From NCBI GenBank assembly GCA_025544715.1, contig GCA_025544715.1_4109.4: a DNA stretch of 34,224 bases, one strand, 5' to 3'. Source of the stretch: Escherichia coli (GTDB lineage: Bacteria > Pseudomonadota > Gammaproteobacteria > Enterobacterales > Enterobacteriaceae). Of the stretch, positions 1-23,274 are shown piece by piece. The translations under genes and the position numbers were made by a program. How positions within the stretch are numbered: position 1 is the stretch's first letter; each line of letters opens with the position of its first letter. The notes under the pieces were generated by a model, which saw only the letters and a list, made by a program, of their open reading frames with translations, was not told where the DNA came from and did not search any database.

Positions 1-151
1 GTGCCGAGATCCGTCCAAAATTCATAAAATTTAAAAAGGATACACTCCCGCACCTTAGCAGGTCATAGCACTTTCTCAGCACTGAATCATAGTATCATAG
101 TACGCCCCAGGATGGCAAGCAAATTAATTAAAACTTTTTGCTTTTAGGCTA

Positions 152-180
152 TTGCTTTTATAATTCAGTACTGCTATAAT
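152..180 (+). promoter_or_regulatory. sigma70-like promoter candidate TTGCTT-17 bp-TATAAT with CAGTACTG box in spacer
   Basis: TTGCTT 152-157, 17-nt spacer containing CAGTACTG (166-173), TATAAT 175-180. TTGCTT also resembles a T4 MotA-box core, so class is ambiguous. Confidence 0.4.
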
Positions 181-402
181 TATTTCATCAAGTCGAGAAA
201 GACTATAGCCCACCGGGTGCATAGTTACGCCTAAAATTCAGTACTAGATTATTTTTAAAAATATTCATCCAGGCGGTTGACATTACCCCCAGTTTATTAG
301 ATAATGATTCCAGATTCAGAAAAATCTAACTCCAGATACTGCGGGGAAACCATCCCCACGCGGTAGGGGAACTATTGGAAAAAACAGAATAAAAATTTTG
401 AT

Positions 403-560
403 TTAGCCGTCTATACATCCAGACGTGTAACCATCTAGCCGTTTAGCCGTCCAAACGTCTAGCAGTACAGCCATCTAGAAATCTAGCCATCCAGCCGCCT
501 AGAGGGATAGCCATCTTTACTTCCAGCCATCTGGAGGTCTAGACATCTCTACGTCTAAAT
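403..560. repeat. iteron-like cluster of short degenerate direct repeats, CTAG-rich
   Basis: Recurring units TAGCCGTC / CCATCTAG / AGCCATC / ACGTCTA over about 160 bp; locally GC-richer than surroundings; at least 6 CTAG tetramers. Confidence 0.45.
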
Positions 561-1342
561 TTAACCTAGGGTTACTACGCCCAAAATCCGTCAGTACTAT
601 ACCATAGATCTATCTTTATGAAGAGAGTATTCAGTACTGCCATCATAGCCCTCACTATGTTACCTTGGGAGGATGAAGACTATCATGTAGTACTGAATAC
701 TGTTAGTGGATAATCCACCAGCACAAGCTGGTGGCATAATGCGTTAGATTAATATCAGTACTGCTACCATTCTGTTAATAACAGTACTGTTTATATTACG
801 AAAAAAGAGGTTGTCAAAGATGAACTGCCTCAAAGGAGGATTCAATCTAATCTGTACTGTCTCACGACAGGAGGTAGAGTGAATGAATTGTTTGCGGCAA
901 CTCATCTCTCTATGTAGAACATTATACAGTACTGAATCATAATGTCAATAGCTTTCTTTCATTTATTCAGTACTAAAATTGTATAATCTGTATCTCTACA
1001 AAACTCATTATATCCCACAAATCCTATATGTCCCAACGTAAATTTCAACTTTCGAAGATCGAACTTTTATTTCATAGGTACTCCAAAATTTTTACGATCC
1101 AGATTTAGGATGGAGTACTAACCAACTTTTTGCTGGAGCCTCAAGGGGTAATTGAAATTTTCCCCGAAGGGTAAAGAGGTAATTGAAATTAAGGTGAAAG
1201 TAATAATTCAGTACTAATCATTGCGTGATTACTTTTGATTACATTTGATGTAATTTGAAAAATGGAAAAGGAGCTTGGAAACTACAAAGTACGGCAGACT
1301 TCCTCTGCCTACTTAGTGGCATATCAGTACTGAATCCTTCCC

Positions 1343-1372
1343 GTGCATTCTTGTGCATTCTTGAGCATTCTT
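1343..1372. repeat. 3 x 10-bp tandem repeat (GTGCATTCTT, GTGCATTCTT, GAGCATTCTT)
   Basis: Direct read of three head-to-tail units. Confidence 0.6.
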
Positions 1373-1443
1373 GTCTATACTAATCAGTACTGAATCATAT
1401 ATAATCATTCTGTGATTCTACGGTGCTCATATAAATGTTTATA

Positions 1444-1472
1444 TATGATTACTTATGACTACCTATGATTAC
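1444..1472. repeat. 3 copies of TATGATTAC / TATGACTAC at 10-bp period
   Basis: Direct read; follows a TCAGTACTGAATC box. Confidence 0.5.
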
Positions 1473-1512
1473 GGGGTTTAGCCTGGGGAGAATCCTAGTG
1501 ATCGCATTTGTC

Positions 1513-1552
1513 CAGGCTGAATTTTAACATATGCAACATATGTTAAAGCCTG
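1513..1552. other. long imperfect inverted repeat (about 16 bp stem with 5-nt bulge, 3-nt loop) abutting a TATAAT
   Basis: CAGGCT-gaatt-TTAACATATG / caa / CATATGTTAAAGCCTG; TATAAT immediately follows at 1553-1558; no U-tract, so not a canonical terminator. Confidence 0.4.
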
Positions 1553-1597
1553 TATAATGCTTCCACTACGGAGCTTCCCCTGTCTATATGTGTTTAA

Positions 1598-1807
1598 TTA
1601 CTTCCTATATATAAGCATTAAGATATAGTAGTACTGATTGTACTGTACATTCTCTTTAATATTATAAGGGTCTATAGCAATCTCGGTACATTTATTAAAT
1701 TTATATCGAGTCATTAATAGAGGGATTAGAGCGTTAATCCACACTTGTTCATTCTCTTTGAGTTTACTTATATAGTACTCTTTATACTCTTTATACTCTT
1801 TATACAT
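1598..1807 (-). CDS. small tandem-paralog protein (KEYY family), 69 aa, N-terminal KEY x3 repeat
   Basis: ATG start; N-term MYKEYKEYKEYYISKL and C-term LMLIYRK fit the family; contains 3 perfect 9-bp repeats. Confidence 0.6.
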   Translation of the reverse strand: MYKEYKEYKEYYISKLKENEQVWINALIPLLMTRYKFNKCTEIAIDPYNIKENVQYNQYYYILMLIYRK

Positions 1808-1820
1808 AGTATTATCTCTA

Positions 1821-2003
1821 TTAATATGATAGTACTAGTGTTAGTACTGAGCACAATTGTTCTTTATAGTTCTTAGGGTGTATAGAATCTTTTATGCACT
1901 CATTAAAGTGCCATAGGTATAATCTTGGGTCGCATTCTTTATATATTCTTACGGGGACGAATGTTAGTTTTCGTATATAGAATTCTTTATGTTCTTTATT
2001 CAT
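1821..2003 (-). CDS. small tandem-paralog protein (KEYY family), 60 aa
   Basis: ATG start; N-term MNKEHKEFYIRKL; tandem with paralogs. Confidence 0.6.
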   Translation of the reverse strand: MNKEHKEFYIRKLTFVPVRIYKECDPRLYLWHFNECIKDSIHPKNYKEQLCSVLTLVLSY

Positions 2004-2008
2004 ATTAG

Positions 2009-2194
2009 TTAGTGTCTGTATATAAGTAATAGTAAGAATACGTACTGCACATCTTCATCTTTAGTATTGAGTACTGTACGTATTGCGTCATTAAACAAGA
2101 ATATAGTACTTGGGTCATGAAAATTTAAAGGGATTCTGGGTACGGCATGTTTGTAGTTCCCTTTAACAAATTGTGTGTAGTATTCTTTATGCAT
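2009..2194 (-). CDS. small tandem-paralog protein (KEYY family), 61 aa
   Basis: ATG start in conserved junction gtagtattctttatgcat; N-term MHKEYY, C-term LLLIYRH. Confidence 0.65.
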   Translation of the reverse strand: MHKEYYTQFVKGNYKHAVPRIPLNFHDPSTIFLFNDAIRTVLNTKDEDVQYVFLLLLIYRH

Positions 2195-2195
2195 G

Positions 2196-2381
2196 TTAGT
2201 ACCTATATATTAGTAAAAGGATGTGATACAGTACTCGATTATAGTCTTCAATATCTATCGAGGATTTAGTGCACTTAATGAAGTAGTCTTTTTCGTAGTC
2301 TTTTTCTATACCCAATGCAACGTTTGGTACAAGGTGTTGGAGATACATTGGGAGTTTCTCTATGTAGTATTCTTTATACAT
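2196..2381 (-). CDS. small tandem-paralog protein (KEYY family), 61 aa
   Basis: N-term MYKEYYIEKLP, C-term LLLIYRY; SD AAGGAT upstream. Confidence 0.65.
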   Translation of the reverse strand: MYKEYYIEKLPMYLQHLVPNVALGIEKDYEKDYFIKCTKSSIDIEDYNRVLYHILLLIYRY

Positions 2382-2390
2382 ATATTATCC

Positions 2391-2579
2391 TTAGTACTGG
2401 AACGCGAGATACAGGGTGTGGTACAGTTGTACTTGATAATTGTTTTCATTAAGTAATTGTTCAGTACATGTGCGGAAGTAATCAGCTTCGTATATACAGT
2501 TAATATCACGATGTTCATCTTCTAATAGATTGCCTTGTAGAAACTTTGGCAGGTCTTTAATGTAGAATTCTTTATGCAT
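2391..2579 (-). CDS. small tandem-paralog protein (KEYY family), 62 aa
   Basis: N-term MHKEFYIKDLP; family member. Confidence 0.65.
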   Translation of the reverse strand: MHKEFYIKDLPKFLQGNLLEDEHRDINCIYEADYFRTCTEQLLNENNYQVQLYHTLYLAFQY

Positions 2580-2588
2580 ATTATTTCC

Positions 2589-2783
2589 TTAGTACACGAA
2601 CGAGAGGTACAGAGTGTGGAATAGTACTCGATGATAGGTTGCATCTTCGTTTATGCATACGTTAGTACACATAATGAAGTACGCTTTATTGTTCACGGTG
2701 TTTAAGTCTCTAGGTTTATCTAGGAGATCTATTAGGTACTGTGGAAAATATTTTCTGTATAATTCTCTGTGTTCATTATTCAT
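2589..2783 (-). CDS. small tandem-paralog protein (KEYY family), 64 aa
   Basis: N-term MNNEHRELY; conserved Y-F-x-x-C-T core. Confidence 0.6.
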   Translation of the reverse strand: MNNEHRELYRKYFPQYLIDLLDKPRDLNTVNNKAYFIMCTNVCINEDATYHRVLFHTLYLSFVY

Positions 2784-2784
2784 A

Positions 2785-2973
2785 TTAGTACCTGTATATT
2801 AGATTTAGTACATTGTACAGGTTATACATATCATCATATTCTTCTTCTATTGTACGAAATATATGCGTGCGGTAGTATCTTGTGTTGCTCTTATCTTTAA
2901 AATTTACAGGTTCGCGGGTAATAAGCTTTTGGTAATTAATTGTAAGTTTACTTATGTAGTATTCTTTATACAT
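2785..2973 (-). CDS. small tandem-paralog protein (KEYY family), 62 aa
   Basis: N-term MYKEYYISKL, C-term LNLIYRY. Confidence 0.65.
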   Translation of the reverse strand: MYKEYYISKLTINYQKLITREPVNFKDKSNTRYYRTHIFRTIEEEYDDMYNLYNVLNLIYRY

Positions 2974-2975
2974 AA

Positions 2976-3158
2976 TTAGTACCTGTATATAAGTAGGATA
3001 ATGTTATATAGCTGGTCTAAACTGCTACTGTTTTCTATGCAGCGTTCTATACAATTTTCGAATCCAAGTACAGCCAAATCATTATCCAGTACTAATTTAT
3101 GTCGAGCGAAGTGTTCCATAATGCTGGGTAGTTTTTGTATGTAGTATTCTTTATGCAT
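2976..3158 (-). CDS. small tandem-paralog protein (KEYY family), 60 aa (start moved to internal ATG)
   Basis: Track ORF 2976..3221 begins at a non-family extension; the family start MHKEYYIQKL is the ATG at 3156-3158; C-term ILLIYRY. Confidence 0.6.
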   Translation of the reverse strand: MHKEYYIQKLPSIMEHFARHKLVLDNDLAVLGFENCIERCIENSSSLDQLYNIILLIYRY

Positions 3159-3822
3159 AGTTTGCAATATATGTAATGAGGTGATGCATTTTCTTATTAG
3201 TACTGATAAGTTCCTGTACATGTTTTGTAAGATTGTACGCGTTTTTGTACAACTCTGGATTATCGATTACAGTACTGTACATGAATAGTTCTTCTTCCTG
3301 TAGTTCTTTATGTTCTAGTTCTTTGAGGAATTCTACAATTGATTTAGTTTCTTCTGTACGTTGTGCTTGCCAGAAGTGCATATTCTCGTGTACTTTTTCT
3401 GCATCAGTAGAGTATATGCCACCCATTTGGAATTGTGCTGTATTGACATCGTGGGAGGTGTTACAATTCCCGAAGAAGTATGTATTCCCGAAGTATAGCA
3501 TTAAAGTGCACGGGGTATTATCCAACTGCATATTGATGATGAAGGATGCGTTCTTTAGTACCTTCGTGCTCGTATTAGTACTCAATACTTTTAAATCAGT
3601 ATTATAGATATTCATATAATGAACAGCTATATTATTTTTCTTCATGTACAATCCCAGGTTCTTTGATACGTTAACTCCATTTGTACTGTTTTTTTTACTT
3701 TTCTTTAGGTTCTTTAGTACATTAGGGTGATACGTATATGCAGATGTAACTGATTCTGCCTGAATACTGTTGAGATACTTAAAGTGCTTAAGGTATTGTT
3801 TGCTGTGTGCATTAAGTTTCAT
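3151..3822 (-). CDS. hypothetical protein, 223 aa, unrelated insert within the small-protein array
   Basis: ATG start with SD AAGGAA; no family termini; Asn/Lys-rich N-half, acidic helical C-half. Confidence 0.6.
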   Translation of the reverse strand: MKLNAHSKQYLKHFKYLNSIQAESVTSAYTYHPNVLKNLKKSKKNSTNGVNVSKNLGLYMKKNNIAVHYMNIYNTDLKVLSTNTSTKVLKNASFIINMQLDNTPCTLMLYFGNTYFFGNCNTSHDVNTAQFQMGGIYSTDAEKVHENMHFWQAQRTEETKSIVEFLKELEHKELQEEELFMYSTVIDNPELYKNAYNLTKHVQELISTNKKMHHLITYIANYA

Positions 3823-3832
3823 TTGGTTTCCT

Positions 3833-4012
3833 TTATATAGATGCCAAGGCGAGGATTTCCCTGTAGGGATTATCTTGTGTTAGTACAGCATAAATGCAGC
3901 TATTGAGATTAATATTTTTAGTACTTTTTGTTCCTAGGTTGTAGTAATCAACGAATGTGTCGTACATGAAACGGTCTTTTATGGTTATACGTTCTATATA
4001 GAATTGGTTCAT
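3833..4012 (-). CDS. small tandem-paralog protein, 59 aa (below track length cutoff)
   Basis: Hand-translated: MNQFYIERITIKDRFMYDTFVDYYNLGTKSTKNINLNSCIYAVLTQDNPYREILALASI; fills the gap between array members. Confidence 0.45.
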   Translation of the reverse strand: MNQFYIERITIKDRFMYDTFVDYYNLGTKSTKNINLNSCIYAVLTQDNPYREILALASI

Positions 4013-4020
4013 AGTATTCC

Positions 4021-4203
4021 TTATATAGAGATTAGTTTCATTACTTCTCTGTATGTGTACTTTTCGTTTTGTGCATCTCTTGTGACGACATATAGGAAGG
4101 TGTGTTTATCTTTTTTGTTCCCGCAATTGTAGAAAATATTGAACTTATTGAAGTTGAATCTTTCGGCGTGTTGTAGTTTAGTTAAATAGAATTCTATGTT
4201 CAT
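4021..4203 (-). CDS. small tandem-paralog protein, 60 aa
   Basis: ATG start; MNIEFYLTKLQ; similar to neighbour 4212..4397 (C-term TYREVMKLISI vs TYRAVLKLIEM). Confidence 0.6.
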   Translation of the reverse strand: MNIEFYLTKLQHAERFNFNKFNIFYNCGNKKDKHTFLYVVTRDAQNEKYTYREVMKLISI

Positions 4204-4211
4204 TTTCTTCC

Positions 4212-4397
4212 TTACATTTCAATAAGTTTCAGTACTGCTCGGTACGTGTACTTAGTTGTTAGTGCTTCTTTAATAGAAATGCAGAAGTAATGTTGTTTGT
4301 CTCTTATACTGCCGCGTTTGTAGTACCACACATGGGAGTTGTGACTGTACTTGTCTCTGTCGGATAGTTGTTGGTAGTAGTAGCTTATATGATTCAT
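4212..4397 (-). CDS. small tandem-paralog protein, 61 aa
   Basis: ATG start; paralog of 4021..4203. Confidence 0.6.
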   Translation of the reverse strand: MNHISYYYQQLSDRDKYSHNSHVWYYKRGSIRDKQHYFCISIKEALTTKYTYRAVLKLIEM

Positions 4398-4444
4398 TGT
4401 AATTAGCCTTACTATGTTAAAGTACTCGGTCCCTGGTGTACCTT

Positions 4445-4639
4445 TTAGAACTTAAAGATGAGGTTCAGGATAGAGCGGTACTTAGTTGCAGGGAACGTAT
4501 GTTCTATTGCATAACGTGTCACCATCCTGAAATCGTAATTATAATACAGATTATCCTTTCTCATAGGTGGTGCTAAAGAGAATGATAGCTGTTCTTGTTT
4601 GGGTAGTTTACTACAATAGAAATCTTTATGATTATTCAT
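4445..4639 (-). CDS. small tandem-paralog protein, 64 aa
   Basis: ATG start; N-term MNNHKDFYCSKLP, C-term LNLIFKF. Confidence 0.6.
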   Translation of the reverse strand: MNNHKDFYCSKLPKQEQLSFSLAPPMRKDNLYYNYDFRMVTRYAIEHTFPATKYRSILNLIFKF

Positions 4640-4841
4640 AGAAATATATTAGTCCTATTAAACCTGAGTACATAATATTTTTGTTATTACATTCGATTGC
4701 TTCTATAGTACTACGTATACAATTATTAAAGCAATCTCTGGCGTGTGGTGTATCTATACTTAAAGGTGATACACTCCTTAGAAACAATTGTTCTTCGTTG
4801 CTAAGGTATTTGGTGTAGAATTCTTTATGTTCAGTATTCAT
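4632..4841 (-). CDS. small tandem-paralog protein, 69 aa
   Basis: ATG start; N-term MNTEHKEFYTKYL; 8-nt overlap with downstream gene. Confidence 0.6.
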   Translation of the reverse strand: MNTEHKEFYTKYLSNEEQLFLRSVSPLSIDTPHARDCFNNCIRSTIEAIECNNKNIMYSGLIGLIYFYE

Positions 4842-4842
4842 A

Positions 4843-5052
4843 TTAGTACTCGATTAATAGTGTTAAGATGAAATAGTACTGCATAGACTCGTTACCTTCA
4901 AGGAAATTCCTTATGAGGTTATTTCTGACTGAGTTAAGCAGAAGTGCCGAACGTTTTGCATTTGCAAGTATAATTTGTTGATGCTCTATGCTATTCTGTT
5001 CACCTTTTGACAGAGCACATAGGTAGTACTGCATAATTTGTTCTTGGGTCAT
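4843..5052 (-). CDS. small protein, 69 aa, divergent array member
   Basis: ATG start overlapping upstream stop; weaker family resemblance. Confidence 0.5.
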   Translation of the reverse strand: MTQEQIMQYYLCALSKGEQNSIEHQQIILANAKRSALLLNSVRNNLIRNFLEGNESMQYYFILTLLIEY

Positions 5053-5294
5053 ATAGATGCCAGTACTAAAAGGTTAATGAATCGTTTACTTTCATCAGGG
5101 TTTTGAAGTCCCTCAAAGATGTCCTCTATAAAGCAATTCAACATAAGTGCACTTGTTGGGGTAGTACTTTTTTTGAGGGTATTGATTGCACAGAATTTTG
5201 AAAGGAAGAATGCGAAATCTTCTGCGTTCATGTAGCTCATATAGTTCTTAGTACTTTGGCTAAGTGCTTGGTAGTGATCTATTACATTGTTCAT
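5049..5294 (-). CDS. small protein, 81 aa, first gene of the minus-strand array
   Basis: ATG with SD AAGGAG 6 nt upstream; directly downstream of the consensus promoter at 5318-5346. Confidence 0.6.
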   Translation of the reverse strand: MNNVIDHYQALSQSTKNYMSYMNAEDFAFFLSKFCAINTLKKSTTPTSALMLNCFIEDIFEGLQNPDESKRFINLLVLASI

Positions 5295-5317
5295 GAAATT
5301 CTCCTTATATTTTTTAT

Positions 5318-5346
5318 ATTATAAATGAGTCCAGAAAGGATGTCAA
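5318..5346 (-). promoter_or_regulatory. consensus sigma70 promoter TTGACA-17-TATAAT for the small-protein array
   Basis: Minus-strand read: TTGACA (plus 5341-5346), 17-nt spacer, TATAAT (plus 5318-5323), then SD and ATG of 5049..5294. Confidence 0.65.
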
Positions 5347-5359
5347 GGGTTTTCTTTTT

Positions 5360-5395
5360 GTGGTAAATATGATATAACAAATAAAGGAGGGATTT
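5360..5395 (+). promoter_or_regulatory. conserved 5' cassette of leader-family gene 1 (-10-like TATAAC, SD AAGGAGG)
   Basis: AAATATGATATAACAAATAAAGGAGGGATTTATG aligns with the cassette upstream of the other family genes; -35 unclear. Confidence 0.35.
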
Positions 5396-6598
5396 ATGTT
5401 ACCTTTTGGAAGAATGATTAAGTACGCAAATATTGCACCAGGTCCAGAACCTGTAGAGTTCTCAGATGTTTTACAACAACATTATACAAACTGTATGTAT
5501 CTACATAACCCAACTAATACTTTATATGGTTATGGTAGTAATAACATGTATCAATTTGGTCTTGGGAATTCAGCAGCAGTTTCGTCATTTACAGTACTTG
5601 CAAGGAACTGTGCAGCCTTTTGGCTTGGTGTTCAAGGTTCATTGATGATTGATTTGGATAATAAAATATACTACACTGGGTCGGTTGGTGCATTTTCTGA
5701 TTATGGAGATGCAACACCTGTTAATGGTTATTTGACAACATGGACTGATGTTACTGTTGCATTTAATAAAATAGGTGTTATGGCTAATATGATCAAGAGT
5801 GTATATATAGGTGAAAGTACTAGAATATTATTAACCGATGGTAGAGTAATTGCGTGTGGAAGAAATACCAATGGTGAATGTGGCTCTGGTAATAAAAATT
5901 CCATCCCTACACTCACAGTTATGACTAATATGGGTGAAGTTACACATATGGCATGTTCATTACAAGGAACGCACTATATCAAATCAAATAAAGATGCATG
6001 GTTTTGTGGTAAGGATAACTTTGGTGAAAGTGGATGTGGTGGTAGTTCTGTTGTATATTTGAACAAATTCGTGATTAGTAATGTAGAACATATTAGTACT
6101 ACATACGATGTTACATGGTGGTTTACTACTGGTGGGCCTGTATATTATAGCGGGGCTAACAGTACTGGACAAGCGGGTAATGGTACGACTACATCGGTAA
6201 ATCAGCTAACACCAATTAGGAACACATCGGTCACGGTTGATGTAAGTAAGTACAGTACTTTTATTTGTCCAAGTAATATGGGAAATGCATCAATTGGTGC
6301 ACCTATGGCACAATACGCACCATATGTTAGAAGTAGTGGTGCTAACTCATATGGTCAAGAAGGTAATGGAACTAATACATTAGTTAGAACTTGGAATATT
6401 TTTAATCTTAGTGCAATAAGTGGTGGTTATGAAAATGTTCTTATGGCATCTAAAGATTGGAGCAGAACCATAATAATTACTAAAGATTATAAATTATATG
6501 CATGTGGTGGCTGGAATGGAAATGGTGGTAGATTGCCAGATGGCACTTATAGTATTACTACACTAACATTAATGCCAACGCAGTTATGGCAACAATAG
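5396..6598 (+). CDS. leader-tagged RCC1-like beta-propeller protein, 400 aa
   Basis: ATG after AAGGAGG; N-term MLPFGRMIKYAN; repeated GxNxxG(Q/E)xGxG motifs (NGECGSGN, GQAGNGT, GQEGNGT); S/T/N/G/Y-rich. Confidence 0.8.
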   Translation: MLPFGRMIKYANIAPGPEPVEFSDVLQQHYTNCMYLHNPTNTLYGYGSNNMYQFGLGNSAAVSSFTVLARNCAAFWLGVQGSLMIDLDNKIYYTGSVGAFSDYGDATPVNGYLTTWTDVTVAFNKIGVMANMIKSVYIGESTRILLTDGRVIACGRNTNGECGSGNKNSIPTLTVMTNMGEVTHMACSLQGTHYIKSNKDAWFCGKDNFGESGCGGSSVVYLNKFVISNVEHISTTYDVTWWFTTGGPVYYSGANSTGQAGNGTTTSVNQLTPIRNTSVTVDVSKYSTFICPSNMGNASIGAPMAQYAPYVRSSGANSYGQEGNGTNTLVRTWNIFNLSAISGGYENVLMASKDWSRTIIITKDYKLYACGGWNGNGGRLPDGTYSITTLTLMPTQLWQQ

Positions 6599-6606
6599 GA
6601 GGGAAT

Positions 6607-7716
6607 ATGTTACCTTTTGGAAGAATAATTAGGTATGGAAATATTGTCCCTGGTCCTAAAAAAATAATTAAAGTTGGTGCTTCTACCCAAGGCCAATTCT
6701 TATTGACTGATTCACATGATTTATATTACATAGGTAGAAATCAAGGTGGTGAATCTGGAAATGGTAATACCAACACGGTGTCTTCGTGGACATTAGTAAG
6801 TGCAGATGTTTCTAATTTTTTCGTGGGTGATCGTACACTTGTTATTATTAAAAATGATAATACGATATGGACATCAGGTCAAACGTACTGGTTCTCATCT
6901 TCTACAACTACTTCTTACAGTACTGTATTAGTTGAAAGAACTAATTGGTTTACCAATGCTATACCAGTAAGTGAAATTGCTAATATTGTATGTACAAATG
7001 GTTTAATATTTGTACTTAGCACTAATTCAGTACTCTATGGTGCAGGAGATAATGGATATCGTGGTTCTTTGGGTATTGGTTCATCATCAATTTACACATT
7101 AACTCAATGTGCTACGAACGTTCGTAAAGTAATGACCAATGCGAATGATAGTATGTATCTTACATTAGATAATAAGCTATATAGTTCTGGATGGAATAGT
7201 AGTGGGCAGCATGGTACGGGGAACCAAACACAAATTAACACTTGGGGATTGCGTAGTTCTGGTGTAATCGATGCAGCCATTGGTGGTAATGCATTAAATT
7301 ACTATAATGGTACATCATATTTCGTATGTGGTCAAACTCCAAACTTTCTTAGTTCAGGTACGACTACATTCCGTGCAGTTCCTTTAAGTACTTTGCCTAA
7401 TAGTTCTCCGTTGTTTATGACGAATTCACCTGCCTTAAATACTGCTACACAAATGGTAATTACCAGTACATATCAGAAGGGTGTTGGGGCGAACCGTGGT
7501 TTGGGATTAAACAATTCTCAAACTGGTGCTATATATAGTGCTACCAATTTACAATTACCCGTTGAAGTTAGTGAGATTAGGGATGTTCTTTTTAGTGATG
7601 GTTTGACATCGATATTAACCAAAAATGGAGATGTGTATAGTACTGGATCGTATTACGCCATTCCAGGTGCAATCGAGGATGTTGCAGTCTTTACTAAAAT
7701 TGATTTACCAAAATAA
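6607..7716 (+). CDS. leader-tagged RCC1-like beta-propeller protein, 369 aa
   Basis: Track ORF starts upstream; family start MLPFGRIIRYGN is ATG 6607 with SD AGGAGGG overlapping upstream stop; motifs GGESGNGN, GQHGTGN. Confidence 0.8.
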   Translation: MLPFGRIIRYGNIVPGPKKIIKVGASTQGQFLLTDSHDLYYIGRNQGGESGNGNTNTVSSWTLVSADVSNFFVGDRTLVIIKNDNTIWTSGQTYWFSSSTTTSYSTVLVERTNWFTNAIPVSEIANIVCTNGLIFVLSTNSVLYGAGDNGYRGSLGIGSSSIYTLTQCATNVRKVMTNANDSMYLTLDNKLYSSGWNSSGQHGTGNQTQINTWGLRSSGVIDAAIGGNALNYYNGTSYFVCGQTPNFLSSGTTTFRAVPLSTLPNSSPLFMTNSPALNTATQMVITSTYQKGVGANRGLGLNNSQTGAIYSATNLQLPVEVSEIRDVLFSDGLTSILTKNGDVYSTGSYYAIPGAIEDVAVFTKIDLPK

Positions 7717-7722
7717 CATAAT

Positions 7723-7747
7723 GCCAGTACAGAGTACTGGCTTTCTT
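7723..7747 (+). terminator. intrinsic terminator (GCCAGTAC-aga-GTACTGGC plus T-tract)
   Basis: Perfect 8-bp stem, 3-nt loop, followed by TTTCTTATTT; just after the stop at 7714-7716. Confidence 0.65.
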
Positions 7748-7787
7748 ATTTGTATTAAATATAGTATAATGAATAAAGGAGGAATTT
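7748..7787 (+). promoter_or_regulatory. conserved 5' cassette (TATAAT -10-like element, SD AAAGGAGG)
   Basis: TTGTATTAAATATAGTATAATGAATAAAGGAGG repeated almost identically upstream of four other family genes; -35 poorly matched. Confidence 0.4.
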
Positions 7788-16808: not shown

Positions 16809-17143
16809 TAGTACCTCGCATCAGGAACTTTAGCACGTAACTTATGAACGACTGGGAACAACAACAAACTTACATATGCAATAGTTGAACCCCAATAGAA
16901 TACTAATACAATTGGTTCACCATTAGAACGGAAACCTCTACTAATCATTGAGTAGTGAATAATAGGCATAATCATCGCCATACCAAACCATGCGTGTAAT
17001 TTTAATTGCAGCATGTTATCAGCGATGAATACTGAAATTGGTCGTTTAAAGAACCACATCAGAAAGTAGAATCCAGCACTAATAATATAGTACATGGTAC
17101 TAACTTTCATATACCACGGCAGTAAATCAATAAAGTACTCCAT
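16808..17143 (-). CDS. paralogous small membrane protein (tandem array), about 111 aa
   Basis: Second ATG preferred by SD GGAGGA spacing; C-term RAKVPDARY. Confidence 0.65.
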   Translation of the reverse strand: MEYFIDLLPWYMKVSTMYYIISAGFYFLMWFFKRPISVFIADNMLQLKLHAWFGMAMIMPIIHYSMISRGFRSNGEPIVLVFYWGSTIAYVSLLLFPVVHKLRAKVPDARY

Positions 17144-17490
17144 CATTCCTCCGGTATCTTGTTTCGAAGGTCAATCATAACACAACAAAGTTTAATGATC
17201 AAGTGAAAAAATACACATATCATACCAATTGTTCCATAAACGACTGAAAAAGCAGGTAGTGCTTTTCCGGCTAGAACAGCCACAATACATGCAATCAATG
17301 TTGATGCAAACAACGATTGATTAATGAAAGAATTCATAAAATCTTTACCATTACGCTTATAGAATTGTCGTTTAAAATACCATCCTAGAAACATAACCAC
17401 CCAAAATGTTACATAACCTGTTAGAATAATCCCTGCAAGTGAATGTGCAACTGGACTACTCCTTAAAAACTCAATATAAGCTTCAAACAT
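17143..17490 (-). CDS. paralogous small membrane protein (tandem array), 115 aa
   Basis: ATG; C-term DLRNKIPEE. Confidence 0.65.
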   Translation of the reverse strand: MFEAYIEFLRSSPVAHSLAGIILTGYVTFWVVMFLGWYFKRQFYKRNGKDFMNSFINQSLFASTLIACIVAVLAGKALPAFSVVYGTIGMICVFFHLIIKLCCVMIDLRNKIPEE

Positions 17491-17828
17491 TAGAAGTCTC
17501 CGCGAATTTTATCTCTACCATGAATAATGAGATGGATTAAGTATACACCTAACCAAATGAACAACCCAAAGAATACAATATATTGCGAGATTGAGTTCAA
17601 GTGAGGATTAGCACAATAAATTAAGTGTGCCATAAGACCAACAATTGCAAACAAACCTTGAACAAGTGTGTAAAGAACTAGTGATGAATTCCTCACTGGA
17701 TACAGTTTAAAAACAATTTTCTTTTTAAAATACCACAGTACTACAACCAGTGCATGATAAAAGAAAAAACCAAAAAGATAAATCAAAGTAATACTAAGCA
17801 TTGTATCTGACTTAAAGAATGTTAACAT
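17490..17828 (-). CDS. paralogous small membrane protein (tandem array), 112 aa
   Basis: N-term MLTFFKSDTMLSITLIYLF; near-duplicate of 17828..18169. Confidence 0.7.
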   Translation of the reverse strand: MLTFFKSDTMLSITLIYLFGFFFYHALVVVLWYFKKKIVFKLYPVRNSSLVLYTLVQGLFAIVGLMAHLIYCANPHLNSISQYIVFFGLFIWLGVYLIHLIIHGRDKIRGDF

Positions 17829-18169
17829 TAGAATTCCCCTTTAATTCTATCACGAGCTTTAATAATAAAGTACATGCTACACACCAACAACCACACGATT
17901 AGACCTGAAAAAACAAGATATTGTGTAATGTGTGGTGTATTATCAATTTGTAACATGTAAATCGCATATATCATCACACCAAATAAAATAAACCCACCTT
18001 GGATAATACTATATAAAACTAAGACTACATTATCATACGAATACAATTTAAAAACAATTTTCCTTTTAAAATACCACAGACTAATTACAATTGAATGATA
18101 ACACAAAAATACAAACATGTAAATTAGCGTGATACCAAGCATTGTATCTGAATTAAAAAACTCAAGCAT
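17828..18169 (-). CDS. paralogous small membrane protein (tandem array), 113 aa
   Basis: N-term MLEFFNSDTMLGITLIYMF; C-term KARDRIKGEF; SD GGAGA. Confidence 0.7.
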   Translation of the reverse strand: MLEFFNSDTMLGITLIYMFVFLCYHSIVISLWYFKRKIVFKLYSYDNVVLVLYSIIQGGFILFGVMIYAIYMLQIDNTPHITQYLVFSGLIVWLLVCSMYFIIKARDRIKGEF

Positions 18170-18198
18170 ATCGTATCTCCGGTGGTGAATATTAAGTT

Positions 18199-18227
18199 AT
18201 AGTACTACACTATGGTAGTACTGTCAA
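18199..18227 (-). promoter_or_regulatory. sigma70-like promoter TTGACA-17-TACTAT with inverted repeat GTAGTACT/AGTACTAC in the spacer
   Basis: Minus-strand read: TTGACA (plus 18222-18227), 17-nt spacer, TACTAT (plus 18199-18204); upstream of the membrane-protein array. Confidence 0.5.
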
Positions 18228-18234
18228 TATTGAA

Positions 18235-19005
18235 TTAAATTTTTTCAAGGAACAAGTTTTCGCACTGTTCTTCCCAATCGTATGGGTTGTTGTTATATAC
18301 TGCCGAAATCAACAGTGGCATACGCAGTGAAGGCGAACGAAGAGAATCTTCGTGCTTCAACATCCAATTCAGAATTGCTTTACTACCATTACGGTTAATA
18401 CCCTTAGATTCTAAAATGTTAGTCTGATTCATCACGTTCTCAATGTGAATCATGATATCGCTTTTGGTCTGAATCTGTAAGTCAACGTATACAGAACGAG
18501 ACATAAGAGCAGCATAGTGAGCAGACATTTTAGTTTTAGCTTTAGAATCTAATGCTAAATCTTTGTTAGTGATGAATACGATACGACCGTTGAAATCAAA
18601 GCTGTTAGGGATACCGTTGGTGCTCAGGTACTTAGAGCTAGTCATATAAGACACGGTACGCTTACCACTATCCAGTACTGCTTTGAGCAGGTTCATACCG
18701 TCTTCAGAATCAAAGATGCTGTCCATATCGTCCAGTACTAACACGTTGGTTCTATGACGATTCTTGTACAGAACTTCGTACAGAGCCAGAGTAGTCATTT
18801 TACCACTGATGGTAGCTACGTTCCATTCTGCTGCGTCATGAGCTTTCTGGAGGCGTTGTGACAGGGTGTAAGTCTTACCAACACCAGGTGCACCGCTGAC
18901 AACCATACTTTTTACAGTACTGCTATCGTCGAGCAAACACTCAAGAGCAACCATCATGGAGTTGAAGTTTTTCTGGATTTGAATGCTACGTGCTTCTCTG
19001 GTCAT
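18235..19005 (-). CDS. P-loop NTPase (Walker A GAPGVGKT, Walker B VLVLDD), 256 aa
   Basis: ATG with SD GAGGAT; Walker motifs read directly; single-gene unit between a cassette and the next promoter. Confidence 0.75.
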   Translation of the reverse strand: MTREARSIQIQKNFNSMMVALECLLDDSSTVKSMVVSGAPGVGKTYTLSQRLQKAHDAAEWNVATISGKMTTLALYEVLYKNRHRTNVLVLDDMDSIFDSEDGMNLLKAVLDSGKRTVSYMTSSKYLSTNGIPNSFDFNGRIVFITNKDLALDSKAKTKMSAHYAALMSRSVYVDLQIQTKSDIMIHIENVMNQTNILESKGINRNGSKAILNWMLKHEDSLRSPSLRMPLLISAVYNNNPYDWEEQCENLFLEKI

Positions 19006-19033
19006 TTCGTTATCCTCATCAGTTGATGAAATA

Positions 19034-19066
19034 ATTATAGCAAAAAGGGCCGACCGAAGTCAACCC
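19034..19066 (-). terminator. bifunctional cassette: UUCG-tetraloop terminator hairpin containing -35 TTGACT, 18-bp spacer, -10 TATAAT
   Basis: Minus RNA GGGUUGAC-UUCG-GUCGGCCC then UUUUU; TTGACT within hairpin, TATAAT 18 nt downstream; folds only in minus sense (G.U pairs). Confidence 0.7.
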
Positions 19067-19081
19067 TTTTTATAAACATAT

Positions 19082-19408
19082 TTAATACACACAATTACCC
19101 ATATCAATATTTTTACCATTATAGGTAATAATATATTTTATCTTATTAGGTTTAATAACAAAAACTTTTAATTTTTGATTCAATTTATCATTTGAAAAAA
19201 TAGTATACGAACCACTTCCATCTTTAAATACTTCTTGACTTTCAAACATAAACTTCTTTCCATCTATTTTTGCTGTTTGTGTTGTTACATCCAAATACAA
19301 ATTGTAGATAGTGTCAGTTTTTGTGGATTTACATGTTGTTGATGCTTCAGTTTTTGCATTCACTGTTGTTGATAAACACATTAACATAACTAACATTAAC
19401 TTTTTCAT
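19082..19408 (-). CDS. small secreted protein (signal peptide), 108 aa
   Basis: ATG with SD GAGG; N-term MKKLMLVMLMCLSTTVNA. Confidence 0.65.
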   Translation of the reverse strand: MKKLMLVMLMCLSTTVNAKTEASTTCKSTKTDTIYNLYLDVTTQTAKIDGKKFMFESQEVFKDGSGSYTIFSNDKLNQKLKVFVIKPNKIKYIITYNGKNIDMGNCVY

Positions 19409-19428
19409 TTTAATTAACCTCTTTTGTT

Positions 19429-20568
19429 TTACAAAATTACTTCACCAAAAATACCATTGATATCACGTTCAATGATGTATTCACCTTCATGTTCAGCTAA
19501 GAACTTTTTAATGGCTTCGTTAACTTTAGGACGATGAATGTTGTTGAATGTTTCAGTGCAACCATCTCCCTTTTCATAATAACCTTTATTATATAGTTTA
19601 CCACATAACGCAATTGTATGTATTATTATTTCCAATTCTCTAGCAAGTTTCCCACCCACATTCTTATGAAATAAAATGGAAATTTCATTACTCCAAAAAT
19701 TATCTACTTTATATATTTTTTTATAAGATAAGTTTTGTGGACTTAATCTTGCTTTAATAGTTTTGTTTGTAATACCAGCTTTATCCGAATTTTTTGCATA
19801 ATCATTGTGAATATAAAATCTTCCAGGCTTGGAAGTTTTAAATCCTGTTACTGCACACGTGGGACAACCAGAACCAGACAGATGTGAATTTGGTGTTTGT
19901 TGAAATTCACCATGTTCTTTGCATATTATAATAGAGGTTACTTGGTTGTTAATGTAGTCATATAAAGAATAATCATACTTATTTCCGTGTATAAGATGTG
20001 ATTTTTTTATAAATTCACCTAAAGTTTGTTTTAAAGTTTGTTTCGTGCATTCTTGACAACCAATTTTACCAGTAGCTAAGTCAGTAATTGTGGGTTTTTT
20101 TATATCACCACAATCATTACATACTACTTCAATTTTAGTTCTACTAGGAAGTGTAGAGTTAAACGAAGTTATTCCACTATAAGTAAATTTATCATAACCA
20201 TATTTTTTGTTGATGACACTAATATGATTAATAGTGTAATATGGAATATTAATAATATTGTAAAAAATCTTACCATTAAATCCCTGCCTAATAAAATTCG
20301 TGCAGGTGGCTCCAATAACTAACATACCATCGTTATTCACTACAAGTTTGGTTTTTGATTTAGATATATAATCTTGTGATCTATTGATATAGAATCCAAG
20401 AACTCTTGGATCATTTATTTCACCCATAATACTAATAGGATCTTGAGCAATGTTGGATTTTTTTACAAAATTTATATCTTCGGCTTTCATCCACTCAAAA
20501 AGCATTCCATGCTCTTCATAAAAATAAACTTTTTCACCATCTTCATTAAAATAGTACTGTTCAAACAT
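19429..20568 (-). CDS. putative nuclease/homing-endonuclease-like protein (zinc-ribbon CxxC pairs plus GIY-YIG-like T5orf172-type segment), 379 aa
   Basis: ATG with SD AAGGAG; CNDCG...CQEC and HGEF...GSGCPTC motifs; FYIHNDYAKNSDKAGITNKTIKARL resembles T5orf172 signature (from memory, not searched). Confidence 0.45.
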   Translation of the reverse strand: MFEQYYFNEDGEKVYFYEEHGMLFEWMKAEDINFVKKSNIAQDPISIMGEINDPRVLGFYINRSQDYISKSKTKLVVNNDGMLVIGATCTNFIRQGFNGKIFYNIINIPYYTINHISVINKKYGYDKFTYSGITSFNSTLPSRTKIEVVCNDCGDIKKPTITDLATGKIGCQECTKQTLKQTLGEFIKKSHLIHGNKYDYSLYDYINNQVTSIIICKEHGEFQQTPNSHLSGSGCPTCAVTGFKTSKPGRFYIHNDYAKNSDKAGITNKTIKARLSPQNLSYKKIYKVDNFWSNEISILFHKNVGGKLARELEIIIHTIALCGKLYNKGYYEKGDGCTETFNNIHRPKVNEAIKKFLAEHEGEYIIERDINGIFGEVIL

Positions 20569-20797
20569 TACTTAAAACTCCTTTCCAGTACTGAACCCGT
20601 CCAGCACCATTAATCTTAGCTTTAATCTTATCTTTTTCGACAAGACCTTCTTTGAAATCGATGGAAGTATTATCGCACTGAATTACATCTAAGTCAAGTA
20701 CTTCTTGTGTACTTAATGAAGTATTATCTGCAATTTGTTGTAAAGTAATTACATCAGTACCGAAGAATTCAGCTAATCGTATAAAAGATAGTTTCAT
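20561..20797 (-). CDS. hypothetical protein, 78 aa
   Basis: ATG with SD AAGGTAA, directly downstream of cassette 20824-20856. Confidence 0.6.
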   Translation of the reverse strand: MKLSFIRLAEFFGTDVITLQQIADNTSLSTQEVLDLDVIQCDNTSIDFKEGLVEKDKIKAKINGAGRVQYWKGVLSNV

Positions 20798-20823
20798 GTA
20801 TTACCTTATATGTTGATGAAATA

Positions 20824-20856
20824 ATTATAGCAAAAAGGGCTGACCGAAGTCAACCC
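20824..20856 (-). terminator. bifunctional terminator/promoter cassette (copy 2)
   Basis: GATGAAATAATTATAGCAAAAAGGGCTGACCGAAGTCAACCCTTT; same architecture as 19034-19066. Confidence 0.7.
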
Positions 20857-20862
20857 TTTATG

Positions 20863-21222
20863 TTATTCTAATTCACTCATAGTACTAATAGTTAATCCCA
20901 TTTCTTCTGCAATGTTGCATAACATACCAACTGCATTACGAAGAATATCAGTGTTGTCCACCGATAATGATGAGTTTTCATTTACAGTTGAAGACTCAAT
21001 GTAGTACTCAAAATAACGAGAAGTTGAACGCACAACTTTAACACCTTCATACTTCTGTAGTTCAGAGTTGATACGCTCGATTAGTGAATCTTCCAGTGCT
21101 CGATAGTCACCATTCATTCCACGTTTCCATCCATCAGCAGGACGGAAATAAAAAGTTTTTGTACGTTGAATTGTTGAGATTGTTAGTGGGTTGTATTCTG
21201 CGATTTCACTTAAAGATGCCAT
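20863..21222 (-). CDS. hypothetical protein, 119 aa
   Basis: ATG with SD GAGGA. Confidence 0.6.
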   Translation of the reverse strand: MASLSEIAEYNPLTISTIQRTKTFYFRPADGWKRGMNGDYRALEDSLIERINSELQKYEGVKVVRSTSRYFEYYIESSTVNENSSLSVDNTDILRNAVGMLCNIAEEMGLTISTMSELE

Positions 21223-21328
21223 GTTGTATTCCTCATTTGGTGATGTACATAATACAGAAAGATAGAACAGGTGTCCATGTTTATATCTAAAATATCCAAA
21301 TACTTTGGTGTAGCAAATACTACATCAA

Positions 21329-21523
21329 CTAATCCTCGCTGAAGACAACAATAAGGAATGACACGAACAATGCCGCATAACAAGGAGCTATCTTCATGTA
21401 CCACGGAACTTCATAATACCATGTACCCAATTCATCCCACGAAAAGATTATACTCACACCGAAGCCGATTAGCGAAAGTACAATGAAAGAAATCCAGAAA
21501 CGCTTTGAATATACTAATAACAT
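21329..21523 (-). CDS. small membrane protein, 64 aa
   Basis: ATG with SD AAGGA; two hydrophobic segments. Confidence 0.5.
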   Translation of the reverse strand: MLLVYSKRFWISFIVLSLIGFGVSIIFSWDELGTWYYEVPWYMKIAPCYAALFVSFLIVVFSED

Positions 21524-21530
21524 GTTATGT

Positions 21531-21560
21531 TCCTTTATGTGACCGAAGTCAATCCTTTCC
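21531..21560 (-). terminator. degenerate partial copy of the terminator/promoter cassette
   Basis: GTGACCGAAGTCAATCC retains the loop and 3' arm only; lies just past the denV stop. Confidence 0.3.
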
Positions 21561-21561
21561 T

Positions 21562-22077
21562 TTAATAATTATTCATTTCATCTTTGATTTGTTCTTCAAT
21601 TTCGTCGAACATATCAGTACTAGATTCGTTCTTACTACTTACGTTCTGCATATCTTTAACGTACTGTGGACATTCAACATCAGTAAACTTATACCACTTA
21701 GGCTTCATCTGGAGCTTCTCAATCAAACGATCACGAGACATTTTAATCTCTGACTCCGATGGTACGTAGTCATTACAAAACTCAGCAGGGAATCCGCTAA
21801 TGTCGTTTACTTCAGTGTTTTGAATCTTCATACCACGACGCAAACATTCGTTAACAATATCAATATGACGCTTCTGTAAGTACAATAACTTGTTGTAGAA
21901 GAATGTTACATGACCTGAACCCAACAGGTAAGTACTGTTAATTTTGAAATCACGTACACGCTTACGTGCTTGAACGTGTTTTTGTACAGCACCAAATACA
22001 CGTGGGAGTTCACGATATTCAGCCATCAGATGTTGGTCAGCAAGTTCTTTAACGTGTACTAAGTTAATGCGTGTCAT
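21562..22077 (-). CDS. denV: endonuclease V (pyrimidine-dimer DNA glycosylase/AP lyase) homolog with about 33-aa acidic C-terminal extension
   Basis: N-term [31 protein letters not shown]...KRVRDFKI...[10 protein letters not shown] matches T4 endonuclease V as recalled; ATG with SD GAGGATG; preceded by cassette. Confidence 0.9.
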
Positions 22078-22105
22078 GTATTCATCCTCTCGTTTCGATG
22101 AAATG

Positions 22106-22138
22106 ATTATAGCAAAAAGGGCCGACTGAAGTCAACCC
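22106..22138 (-). terminator. bifunctional terminator/promoter cassette (copy 3, loop variant CUUC/CTGA)
   Basis: GATGAAATGATTATAGCAAAAAGGGCCGACTGAAGTCAACCC; drives denV. Confidence 0.65.
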
Positions 22139-22144
22139 TTTTCT

Positions 22145-22414
22145 TTATTCAATGATCCCCAACTTAACAATCTCATACCCATCCAAATATCCATATGAAC
22201 ACTCAGGCGTTTCATAGGATGAACCATCATGAATGCCCTGGCATTGACTTTTAGAACGCTCAAGCAATCGTTGCAGTACTGATACGTCCTCAAGAACGTA
22301 ACACAAGGATACATCTGGGTCTTCCACGATACAGTACTCCAATATATCAAAGGTATTAATGAAAATTACAATCTTAGCGAATTGTTTCTTTTCTTTATTA
22401 TACAGTGCGTACAT
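22145..22414 (-). CDS. hypothetical protein, about 89 aa (start moved to internal ATG)
   Basis: Track start is non-ATG; ATG giving MYALYNKEKK has SD GGAGA and abuts the upstream stop at 22416. Confidence 0.5.
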   Translation of the reverse strand: MYALYNKEKKQFAKIVIFINTFDILEYCIVEDPDVSLCYVLEDVSVLQRLLERSKSQCQGIHDGSSYETPECSYGYLDGYEIVKLGIIE

Positions 22415-22415
22415 A

Positions 22416-22787
22416 TTAATCTCCATAATCAAGTTTAACTAACTTACCACCCAGATACCCAAAGTTTTCTGGCTTCGCATCTGAATAGAAGAAGTCAGTA
22501 CTCAACTCTGATTTTGATGCCAACGTACACAACTCCACCCAAAATAAACCCCTATGTTGCACTGGCTTACAACGTTTCTGTACTGTTATTAAACCAGTGC
22601 ATGATGACCACAAAGTAGGGCAGATACCACTATCACCACGATTGGAGTACTGCATCCATGAACGTTCATTGAGGTTAGCTATCATTCCAGTTAGGAATAA
22701 CTTCCAGCTTTTGAAGGTTGGAATCTTAATAGCGTATTCCCCAATGAGGATAACAGTTCGGGTTGCACCTTTCAAATCTATATTCAT
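22416..22787 (-). CDS. mini protein-kinase-like protein, about 123 aa (start moved to internal ATG)
   Basis: Track start is GTG overlapping upstream gene; ATG 22785-22787 lies 8 nt after upstream stop; motifs GEYAIKIP, DAKPEN, KLDYGD at kinase-typical spacing. Confidence 0.5.
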   Translation of the reverse strand: MNIDLKGATRTVILIGEYAIKIPTFKSWKLFLTGMIANLNERSWMQYSNRGDSGICPTLWSSCTGLITVQKRCKPVQHRGLFWVELCTLASKSELSTDFFYSDAKPENFGYLGGKLVKLDYGD

Positions 22788-22795
22788 ATTTTTAA

Positions 22796-23047: not shown

Positions 23048-23086
23048 TTATCGCCTCACTTAATTAACGTGACATATCACGTAATA

Positions 23087-23263: not shown

Positions 23264-23274
23264 ATAAGTTATCC

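Follow-up and report, generated by a model that had tools for sequence, protein, structure and literature searches.

A highly iterated AGTACT palindrome in RaK2-like jumbo phages of Enterobacterales: a candidate genome tag that recurs in early promoters

The palindromic hexamer AGTACT occurs 122 times in a 34,224-bp stretch of DNA from an Escherichia coli assembly (the window), where 11.38 copies are expected (s.d. 3.63, maximum 22, from 100 dinucleotide-preserving shuffles), and 891 times in the complete genome of the jumbo coliphage PBECO4, against approximately 100–118 expected. On the genome comparisons presented here, this excess is a positively selected clade trait of the enterobacterial RaK2-like jumbo phages. 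The explanation that we favour, tentatively and at somewhat less than even likelihood, is that AGTACT is a selected genome tag read by a putative sequence-specific factor and is also an operator at immediate-early promoters. Some 900 copies per genome in at least six phage lineages would imply a sequence-specific system not described before, in a clade in which more than 80% of genes have no known function.

Source of the window and position of the genome end

The first 12 kb of the window are approximately 95% identical to PBECO4 and similar Asteriusvirus jumbo coliphages, and by this similarity the source is an Asteriusvirus, a PBECO4/121Q-like jumbo coliphage. Phages of this genus have direct terminal repeats of approximately 21 kb (PMC13070987). 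The left termini of fEgEco12 and vB_Ec-M-J are identical (5'-AGTAGGCAGAGGAAGTCTGCC) and align to window position 1313 on the minus strand; the AGTACT-rich leader at 80–1410 is therefore a concatemer junction. Genome base 1 corresponds to position 1313, minus strand, with a hairpin (GGCAGA-GGAAG-TCTGCC) just inside it. Positions 1–1313 are the first 1.3 kb of the terminal repeat, reversed, and unique DNA runs from 1314 on, with its final non-coding part at 1314–1597. No convincing gene was found between 1 and 1597. The main features are collected in table 1.

Table 1. AGTACT sites, promoters, terminators and the genome end in the window.
Feature	Position	Strand	Remarks
All 122 AGTACT sites	1..34224		approximately 1 per 280 bp
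13 leader AGTACT sites	167..1391		many with the longer half-site ATTCAGT
Promoter-like TTGCTT-N17-TATAAT	152..180	+	sequence reading; AGTACT at 167-172
Perfect sigma70 consensus TTGACA-N16-TATAAT	921..948	-	12/12 match
Physical left end of the virion genome, start of the ~21-kb direct terminal repeat	1293..1314	-	from fEgEco12/vB_Ec-M-J termini
Terminator GCCAGTAC-aga-GTACTGGC, then T tract	7723..7741	+	after RCC1-like paralogue; AGTACT in stem
Terminator GCCAGTACTCTGTACTGGC, then TTTTCTT	8983..9001	+	second copy of the 7723 family; AGTACT in stem
Terminator ATCCAGTACT-taat-AGTACTGGAT, then TTTTT	15360..15383	+	two AGTACT copies build the stem
Promoter-like with two boxes, TTGACA-17-TACTAT	18199..18227	-	10/12 match
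Perfect sigma70 consensus TTGACA-N16-TATAAT	23877..23904	-	12/12 match

AGTACT is over-represented throughout the genome

An initial sequence-only reading of the window had placed the enrichment at 80–1410, counting about 17 AGTACT in the first 1.9 kb. All 17 are present, and the leader itself has 13 sites where 0.46 are expected (Poisson p ~4e-15), starting at 167, 240, 593, 633, 689, 757, 783, 928, 969, 1114, 1210, 1326 and 1386. The same reading overcounted an extended form, said to recur at least 12 times in the leader: TCAGTACTG occurs only five times in 80–1410, TCAGTACT nine times and CAGTACT 11 times. Its span also proved too small, as the whole window and the PBECO4 genome are enriched. 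The exact k-mer count against shuffled controls that it had proposed gave a strong excess in the window and genome-wide in PBECO4, and since the genome-wide count is far from expectation, the finding stands.

Every 2-kb bin of the window is enriched, with 3–17 copies each, and AGTACT is the only palindromic hexamer to exceed 2.3-fold there; in PBECO4 it is the top over-represented hexamer, with a mean spacing of 390 bp. The longer CAGTACTG is found 27 times in the window (0.34 expected) and 191 times in PBECO4 (3.4 expected). The window sites divide into 100 coding (phases 53/22/25) and 22 non-coding. An exact short palindrome that is many-fold over-represented genome-wide, as seen in both the window and PBECO4, is one mark of a highly iterated palindrome (HIP). 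AGTACT is densest in the terminal repeat and early region (45–67 per 10 kb in PBECO4, 29–40 per 5 kb in the related genome JNE01) and sparsest in structural and replication genes, where it is still at least 4-fold over expectation. Taken together, the evidence points to AGTACT being read as symmetric duplex DNA and to an advantage of many copies, greatest in the terminal repeat.

A strict and symmetric signal in duplex DNA

The simplest explanation would be a local one, in which a promoter spacer element, terminator stems and Ser-Thr codon pairs (AGT-ACT) add up to the excess, or a neutral mutational bias produces it. In its favour, early promoters and one family of terminators do contain the box, and phase 0, which encodes Ser-Thr, is the largest coding class. 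However, 730 of the 891 PBECO4 sites (82%) lie inside genes, and all three phases are 3–4-fold over synonymous-codon shuffles (353/140/237 observed for phases 0/1/2, against 113/36/61), so that the earlier attribution of part of the coding excess to Ser-Thr pairs does not hold. Synonymous-codon and codon-order shuffles together ruled out a codon-pair origin. As in HIP-type systems, sites are found both within and between ORFs, and neither codons nor peptides explain them. A mutational bias fares no better: the exact hexamer is 8.9-fold enriched and its 18 one-mismatch neighbours, at 1.5-fold on average, are not depleted. The genome-wide and codon-phase tests contradict the local explanation, to which we assign next to no likelihood.

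Outside the early region, coding and non-coding densities in PBECO4 are equal (2.25 and 2.57 per kb, respectively), and sites are uniform along the length of genes. The consensus is a strict hexamer. At −1, C is favoured (45%) and G disfavoured (8%), with purines depleted, and +1 has the mirror preference; beyond ±1 the flanks hold almost no information genome-wide, and flank preferences are broadly mirror-symmetric, with smaller strand differences. Because all codon phases are enriched, coding and non-coding densities match, the profile along genes is flat and the flanks are symmetric, AGTACT is best described, at the level of sequence, as a strict symmetric signal in duplex DNA and not as a codon, peptide or RNA motif. 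An RNA motif was rejected on the broadly symmetric flanks and on the Rfam covariance models, none of which matched at gathering score in the whole window. VSP-like biased repair was likewise rejected, as the one-mismatch neighbours are not depleted even where they are deamination products (AGTATT and AATACT). Flanks that are uninformative beyond ±1 are seen with restriction-modification-type enzymes more often than with helix-turn-helix operators, which counts against a factor-read tag. Leader sites, by contrast, lengthen toward an operator-like palindrome of 12–14 bp, ATTCAGTACTGAAT.

Sites are evenly spread and unclustered except for an excess at 20–22 bp spacing, so cooperative binding is not indicated. 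An even, unclustered distribution at equal coding and non-coding density would also suit a replication or recombination coverage site, meaning a T4-type primase start or the site of another such enzyme, enriched so that both strands have frequent sites. In the primase form of this model, the site would comprise one cryptic base and a five-base primer, and both strands would carry it every few hundred bases. A palindrome serves both strands, a hexamer needs approximately 10-fold enrichment for its spacing to fall below the length of an Okazaki fragment (the observed mean in PBECO4 is 390 bp), and PBECO4 encodes a primase and helicase pair. On the other hand, we know of no primase that needs six bases, and T4 gp61 uses GTT or GCT. 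The model also leaves unexplained the 2–3-fold higher density in the terminal repeat and the fixed positions in promoters, and the related phage PA5oct has no AGTACT in the 15 kb sampled. We regard a coverage site as quite improbable.

Early promoters and terminators

The early region is a string of cassettes, each with a sigma70 promoter, a 5' hairpin and a small ORF, and its intergenic AGTACT density is 11.6 per kb. AGTACT accompanies 51 of 106 strong promoters. With the first base of the −10 hexamer as reference, the offsets at which AGTACT begins in Asteriusvirus are −7/−8 (the AGTACTGTATAAT form), −17/−18 (the TTGACAGTACT form) and −27 (the AGTACTTGCA form); in GAP32 they are −7/−8 and −29. 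The box thus takes discrete positions at early sigma70 promoters, at about −19 to −14, −29 to −24 and −39 to −34, approximately one helical turn apart. These fixed positions may partly stem from common descent of a few duplicated promoter-cassette families. At offset −8 (16 cases), a G directly after the box places TG at −15/−14, as at window position 167, while the commoner offset −7 (27 cases) places it at −14/−13. The box is missing from another class of promoter in the window, TTGACT-N18 with TGn.

Both box-carrying promoters that the sequence-only reading had named, at 152–180 and, on the minus strand, at 23877–23904, are borne out by the sequence. In the former, the box followed by GC supplies T at −15 and G at −14, giving a possible extended −10; it was absent from the promoter scan because its −35 matches at only three of six positions. 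In the latter, AGTACT (23884–23889) lies one base upstream of the −10, and the same arrangement is found in the perfect promoter running from 948 to 921 (AGTACT 928–933), which points into the terminal repeat. The promoter-like element at 18199–18227 has one box, at 18217, overlapping its −35 (TTGACAGTACT) and another, at 18201, supplying its −10 (AGTACTAT). The suggestion that AGTACT is a promoter-class element therefore applies only to a minority, those placed at set points within early sigma70 promoters, and fails for the large majority that lie inside genes in PBECO4.

A similar qualification applies to terminators, for which AGTACT stems had been claimed on the plus strand. Six members of a Rho-independent terminator family are found in the window, and the claim is correct for three, at 7723, 8983 and 15360, whereas those at 9791, 12211 and 13487 have CCAGTA/TACTGG-type stems without the exact hexamer. 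PBECO4 has nine CAGTAC-N-GTACTG terminator-type hairpins among its 891 sites, so the terminator stem is a minor use of AGTACT. A hairpin or terminator origin of the excess was rejected on this count, and because close site pairs are not in excess.

Conservation and distribution among phages

When compared with JNE01 (87% identity), 73% of AGTACT sites are intact, against 51% of control hexamers of the same composition (p=0.0035), with a balance of 14 losses and 10 gains. In an alignment of the leader from five Asteriusviruses, AGTACT columns are 91% invariant, compared with 72% for the remaining leader. Conservation over background, seen in both comparisons, is a further property of HIP-type palindromes, and it is not predicted by the local explanation discussed above; nor is a trait common to genera whose proteins are only approximately 53% identical. 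Between PBECO4 and RaK2 orthologues, which show that level of identity, only six of 31–35 sites are at the same position. With so few positions common to the genera, selection mainly keeps up density and not single sites.

Enrichment was found in samples of RaK2 (8.8-fold), GAP32 (18.6-fold, the highest density), fHe-Yen9-04 (8-fold), Munch (6.4-fold) and CBB (10.7-fold). Together with the window's own genus, the AGTACT-rich lineages take in Asterius-, Alcyoneus-, Mimas- and Eneladusvirus and a Munch-like group. Samples of the non-enterobacterial relatives PA5oct, XacN1 and Atu_ph07 showed no enrichment, with 0, 0 and 1 AGTACT, respectively. T4 and T5 are likewise not enriched, the phi92-like phage ECGD1 has none against 8.3 expected, and one 50-kb sample of E. 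coli has three against 11.6 expected (approximately 1 per 17 kb). Pooled, these seven outgroups have 16 AGTACT where 53.3 are expected. Outside the clade, AGTACT thus tends to be avoided, which makes the excess within it the more striking.

Avoidance of AGTACT by the host and by other coliphages suggests restriction pressure on the site, from which a phage with 900 copies must escape somehow. This bears on the main rival to a factor-read tag, a HIP-like role in methylation, which we judge unlikely. Here an orphan DNA methyltransferase of the phage would act on AGTACT, whose abundance would be created or kept up for a methylation-dependent function such as self-marking, early-promoter timing or protection from ScaI-type restriction, as proposed for HIP1 and the alternative HIPs of cyanobacteria. 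A strict six-base palindrome with almost no flank information resembles restriction-modification-type recognition. Two methyltransferases are encoded by the phage, one a Dam-family PF05869 enzyme and the other a C5 enzyme, the latter conserved in Asterius-, Mimas- and Alcyoneusvirus. These were the only two methyltransferases found in PBECO4, and its only amino-methyltransferase is the former; characterised PF05869 Dam-family members methylate GATC. The C5 enzyme has a 51%-identical homologue in ECGD1, where AGTACT is missing altogether. There is a precedent in cyanobacteria, where every such palindrome is accompanied by a methyltransferase of matching specificity (PMC4390886), but cytosine methylation in RaK2 was reported at CpG, a dinucleotide absent from AGTACT (PMC3622015). 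The indirect evidence thus favours other targets for the phage enzymes. Ten neighbouring ORFs gave no matches. The pattern is not that of a Type II restriction-modification system either: AGTACT is enriched and not avoided, no N4-type methyltransferase and a single ORF with an NPPY motif were found, and the window's 'endonuclease' is a member of a homing/HNH-type family. The undepleted deamination neighbours leave biased repair unsupported, and methylation alone does not explain why extra sites would be selected.

The confinement of the trait to phages of Enterobacterales could also point to a host factor, in which case an Enterobacterales DNA-binding protein, SlmA or another, would bind AGTACT and be used by the phage to stop cell division, turn on early promoters or protect its incoming DNA. 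Such a factor would already be present when phage gene expression begins, in keeping with the terminal-repeat peak. We know of no other E. coli regulator with an AGTACT site, and T4, T5 and the phi92-like coliphage, which lack the enrichment, speak against a host factor; we consider it very improbable. AGTACT is the core of the SlmA site GTGAGTACTCAC, likewise palindromic and from the same host group, in which G1, T2 and a purine at position 3 are needed (PMC3020112). In the phage, however, G is the rarest base at −1 and purines are depleted there, while GAGTACTC occurs 0–1 times per sample. SlmA itself was rejected, since the flanks that it requires are missing or disfavoured around the core and PBECO4 has no SlmA homologue. 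SlmA sites number approximately 50 per E. coli chromosome, compared with approximately 900 AGTACT per phage genome.

A putative reader of the tag

The sequence-only reading had offered both a factor-binding site and a site tied to DNA modification; both are viable, and a factor site is the best explanation. The results show that AGTACT sites are enriched, under selection, characteristic of one clade, symmetric and set at particular promoter positions; from this we infer that a two-fold-symmetric, sequence-specific protein would read AGTACT on double-stranded DNA. This protein would most likely be encoded by the phage, and either made early or carried in the virion. One site per 280–390 bp, against the much lower density in the E. 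coli sample, could give selective occupancy of phage DNA, and a factor bound at the operator-like early-promoter positions could regulate immediate-early transcription, with shut-off as the simplest mode. A repressor role alone does not explain the hundreds of AGTACT inside late genes.

A search for the reader among approximately 40 window proteins in Pfam returned no DNA-binding domain, and neither did the comparison of ten larger window proteins with PHROGs. Across Pfam (those approximately 40 proteins), PHROGs and PDB (subsets), the matches were limited to an HNH-type endonuclease, an AAA ATPase, a T4 endonuclease V-like glycosylase, a kinase and RCC1 repeats. RCC1 copy number was rejected as a correlate: GAP32 has one RCC1-like gene and yet the highest AGTACT density.

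The factor-read tag could be extended to self-DNA recognition, a more doubtful reading in our view. AGTACT would then be an address label on which the factor, expressed early or delivered with the virion, loads every few hundred bases, beginning with the terminal repeat, so as to shield or mark the DNA and silence immediate-early promoters. The shield would act against host nucleases, including the ScaI-type enzymes that other coliphages evade by site avoidance. If this is true, a sequence tag would play in this clade the part that falls to base hypermodification or a phage nucleus in other large phages.

Comparison with known systems

Several oligomers are over-represented in genomes and mark or orient the organism's own DNA, namely Chi, the Neisseria DUS, the Haemophilus USS and KOPS, with RecBCD, ComP and FtsK among their readers. 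In these systems, as for AGTACT, site density counts and not individual positions. They are asymmetric, mostly orientation-biased and have known readers, whereas AGTACT is palindromic and several-fold denser; its palindromic form and broadly symmetric flanks set it apart from a Chi-like hotspot in particular. A ScaI-type target is the same exact hexamer with the same all-or-none specificity. Such targets are normally avoided, as in the outgroups, whereas in the clade AGTACT is enriched and no matching enzyme pair was found.

Two phage systems resemble the early region. T4-type phages reportedly have PeSL (promoter-early stem-loop) cassettes, credited to Arbiol et al. in 2010, which share with it the repeated sigma70 promoter, 5' hairpin and small ORF; PeSLs are not defined by a palindromic box. 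TF1 of phage SPO1 is a phage protein with preferred sites in early promoters, although it recognises hmU-containing DNA and not a hexamer. A phage protein made in abundance, with a preference for phage DNA and a damping effect on early promoters, would be its functional counterpart; the analysis identified no TF1-like gene.

The closest likeness is to HIP1 (GCGATCGC) and the alternative cyanobacterial palindromes, which are also short, exact and hyper-abundant genome-wide, occur both within genes and between them, show an above-background conservation that implies selection, have no gene-level function and are a lineage trait (PMC5861425, PMC4390886). AGTACT differs in belonging to a virus and not a cell, in being an A+T-rich hexamer and not a G+C-rich octamer, in its strong terminal-repeat peak and fixed early-promoter positions, and in occurring in a phage without an evident cognate methyltransferase; a 10–90-kb periodicity has been reported for HIP1. 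We therefore describe AGTACT as a highly iterated palindrome of a viral, A+T-rich kind that is also linked to early promoters; we found no prior report of it. The motif goes unmentioned in the full-text literature covered, including the CBB, Sharanji, fEgEco12, RaK2, phAPEC6 and PA5oct papers.

The HIP1 problem, unsolved in cyanobacteria, is thereby extended to viruses, in which infection timing makes function testable. A ScaI digest or a methylation call would separate the main hypotheses, and a 12-bp duplex probe of the form TTCAGTACTGAA could fish out the putative reader protein. An immediate-early promoter class with a built-in operator-like box is useful for engineering therapeutic-candidate phages, and the AGTACT excess is a cheap signature of RaK2-like contigs in metagenomes.

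Site avoidance outside and inside the clade

The AGTACT palindrome, enriched genome-wide in this clade of RaK2-like enterobacterial jumbo phages, is scarce in the outgroups. It is absent from the phi92-like coliphage ECGD1 (L026; 8.3 sites expected) and from PA5oct (L009; 5.0 expected), while E. coli K-12 (L012) has three sites against 11.6 expected. This scarcity beyond the clade suggests restriction pressure on the site within this ecosystem. In the whole window, neither GGTACC nor CGTACG occurs (3.2 expected for each), so that a GTAC core flanked by G or C is avoided while AGTACT is enriched. GATC and GGCC are depleted to 0.33-fold and 0.30-fold, respectively, across the whole window, despite phage-encoded Dam-family and C5 methyltransferases.

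Promoters, early cassettes and terminators

A second class of promoter in the window has the form TTGACT-N18-TGnTATAAT, with an extended −10 and no AGTACT box (see table). These promoters may constitute a temporal class distinct from the promoters of the terminal repeat. The terminal repeat of the relative JNE01 (L014 1-20000) carries approximately 50 early cassettes, in each of which a small ORF and its ribosome-binding site are preceded by a consensus sigma70 promoter and a 5' hairpin (GGGGAGAAnnnnTTCTCCCC). The arrangement is similar to that of the PeSL cassettes known from T4-type phages. Where the spacers are longer, they also hold a terminator (GGGATTGACTCCGGTCAGTCCC) as well as a conserved ~26 nt box (AGCCCAYMGGGTGCRNRNGTGTAWCT), and this box is present in the window's non-coding leader too.

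Downstream of most of the tandem RCC1-like paralogues lies a member of the GCCAGTAC-N3-GTACTGGC terminator family. The phAPEC6 paper speculated that RCC1-like proteins organize DNA in the capsid. RCC1-like copy number was considered as a correlate of AGTACT density and rejected: AGTACT is densest in GAP32, a relative with a single copy.

Coordinates of features in the window
Feature	Position	Strand	Remarks
Conserved ~26 nt box	205-232		leader
8-bp-period array	402-545		~18 units T(C/T)TAGCC(G/A); ~800 bp from genome end
Inverted Chi pair CCACCAGCacaaGCTGGTGG	715-734		leader; ~590 bp inward of physical genome end
Short tandem direct repeats, 10-bp periods	1226-1259, 1338-1377, 1436-1469		around genome end
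Physical genome end and terminal-repeat start	1293-1314		
RCC1-like beta-propeller paralogues, tandem	5396-14704		
TTGACT-N18-TGnTATAAT promoters	19034-19063, 20824-20853, 22106-22135	minus	

Architecture of the genome end

The sequence of the genome end is identical between fEgEco12 and vB_Ec-M-J, and bases 5-21 of the virion DNA form the hairpin GGCAGA-GGAAG-TCTGCC. Around the genome end lie 10-bp-period repeats of the TGATTAC type together with three copies of TTCTTGTGCA; one block falls within the terminal repeat, approximately 60-90 bp from its start, and two in the adjoining unique DNA. The 8-bp-period array may serve for packaging or for recognition by the terminase. Its half-site is similar to the KorB operator half TTTAGCC.

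Chi (GCTGGTGG) is the RecBCD hotspot. It is approximately 15-fold enriched across the PBECO4 genome (L004-L006 and L015-L018; 22 copies against 1.5 expected), ranking first among 168 8-mers of the same composition. Eight minus-strand Chi sites at 133.8-152.8 kb in PBECO4 are expected to fall within the terminal repeat. In that case, and presuming a repeat of approximately 21 kb by comparison with relatives, their orientation would be suited to halting RecBCD arriving from the opposite end.
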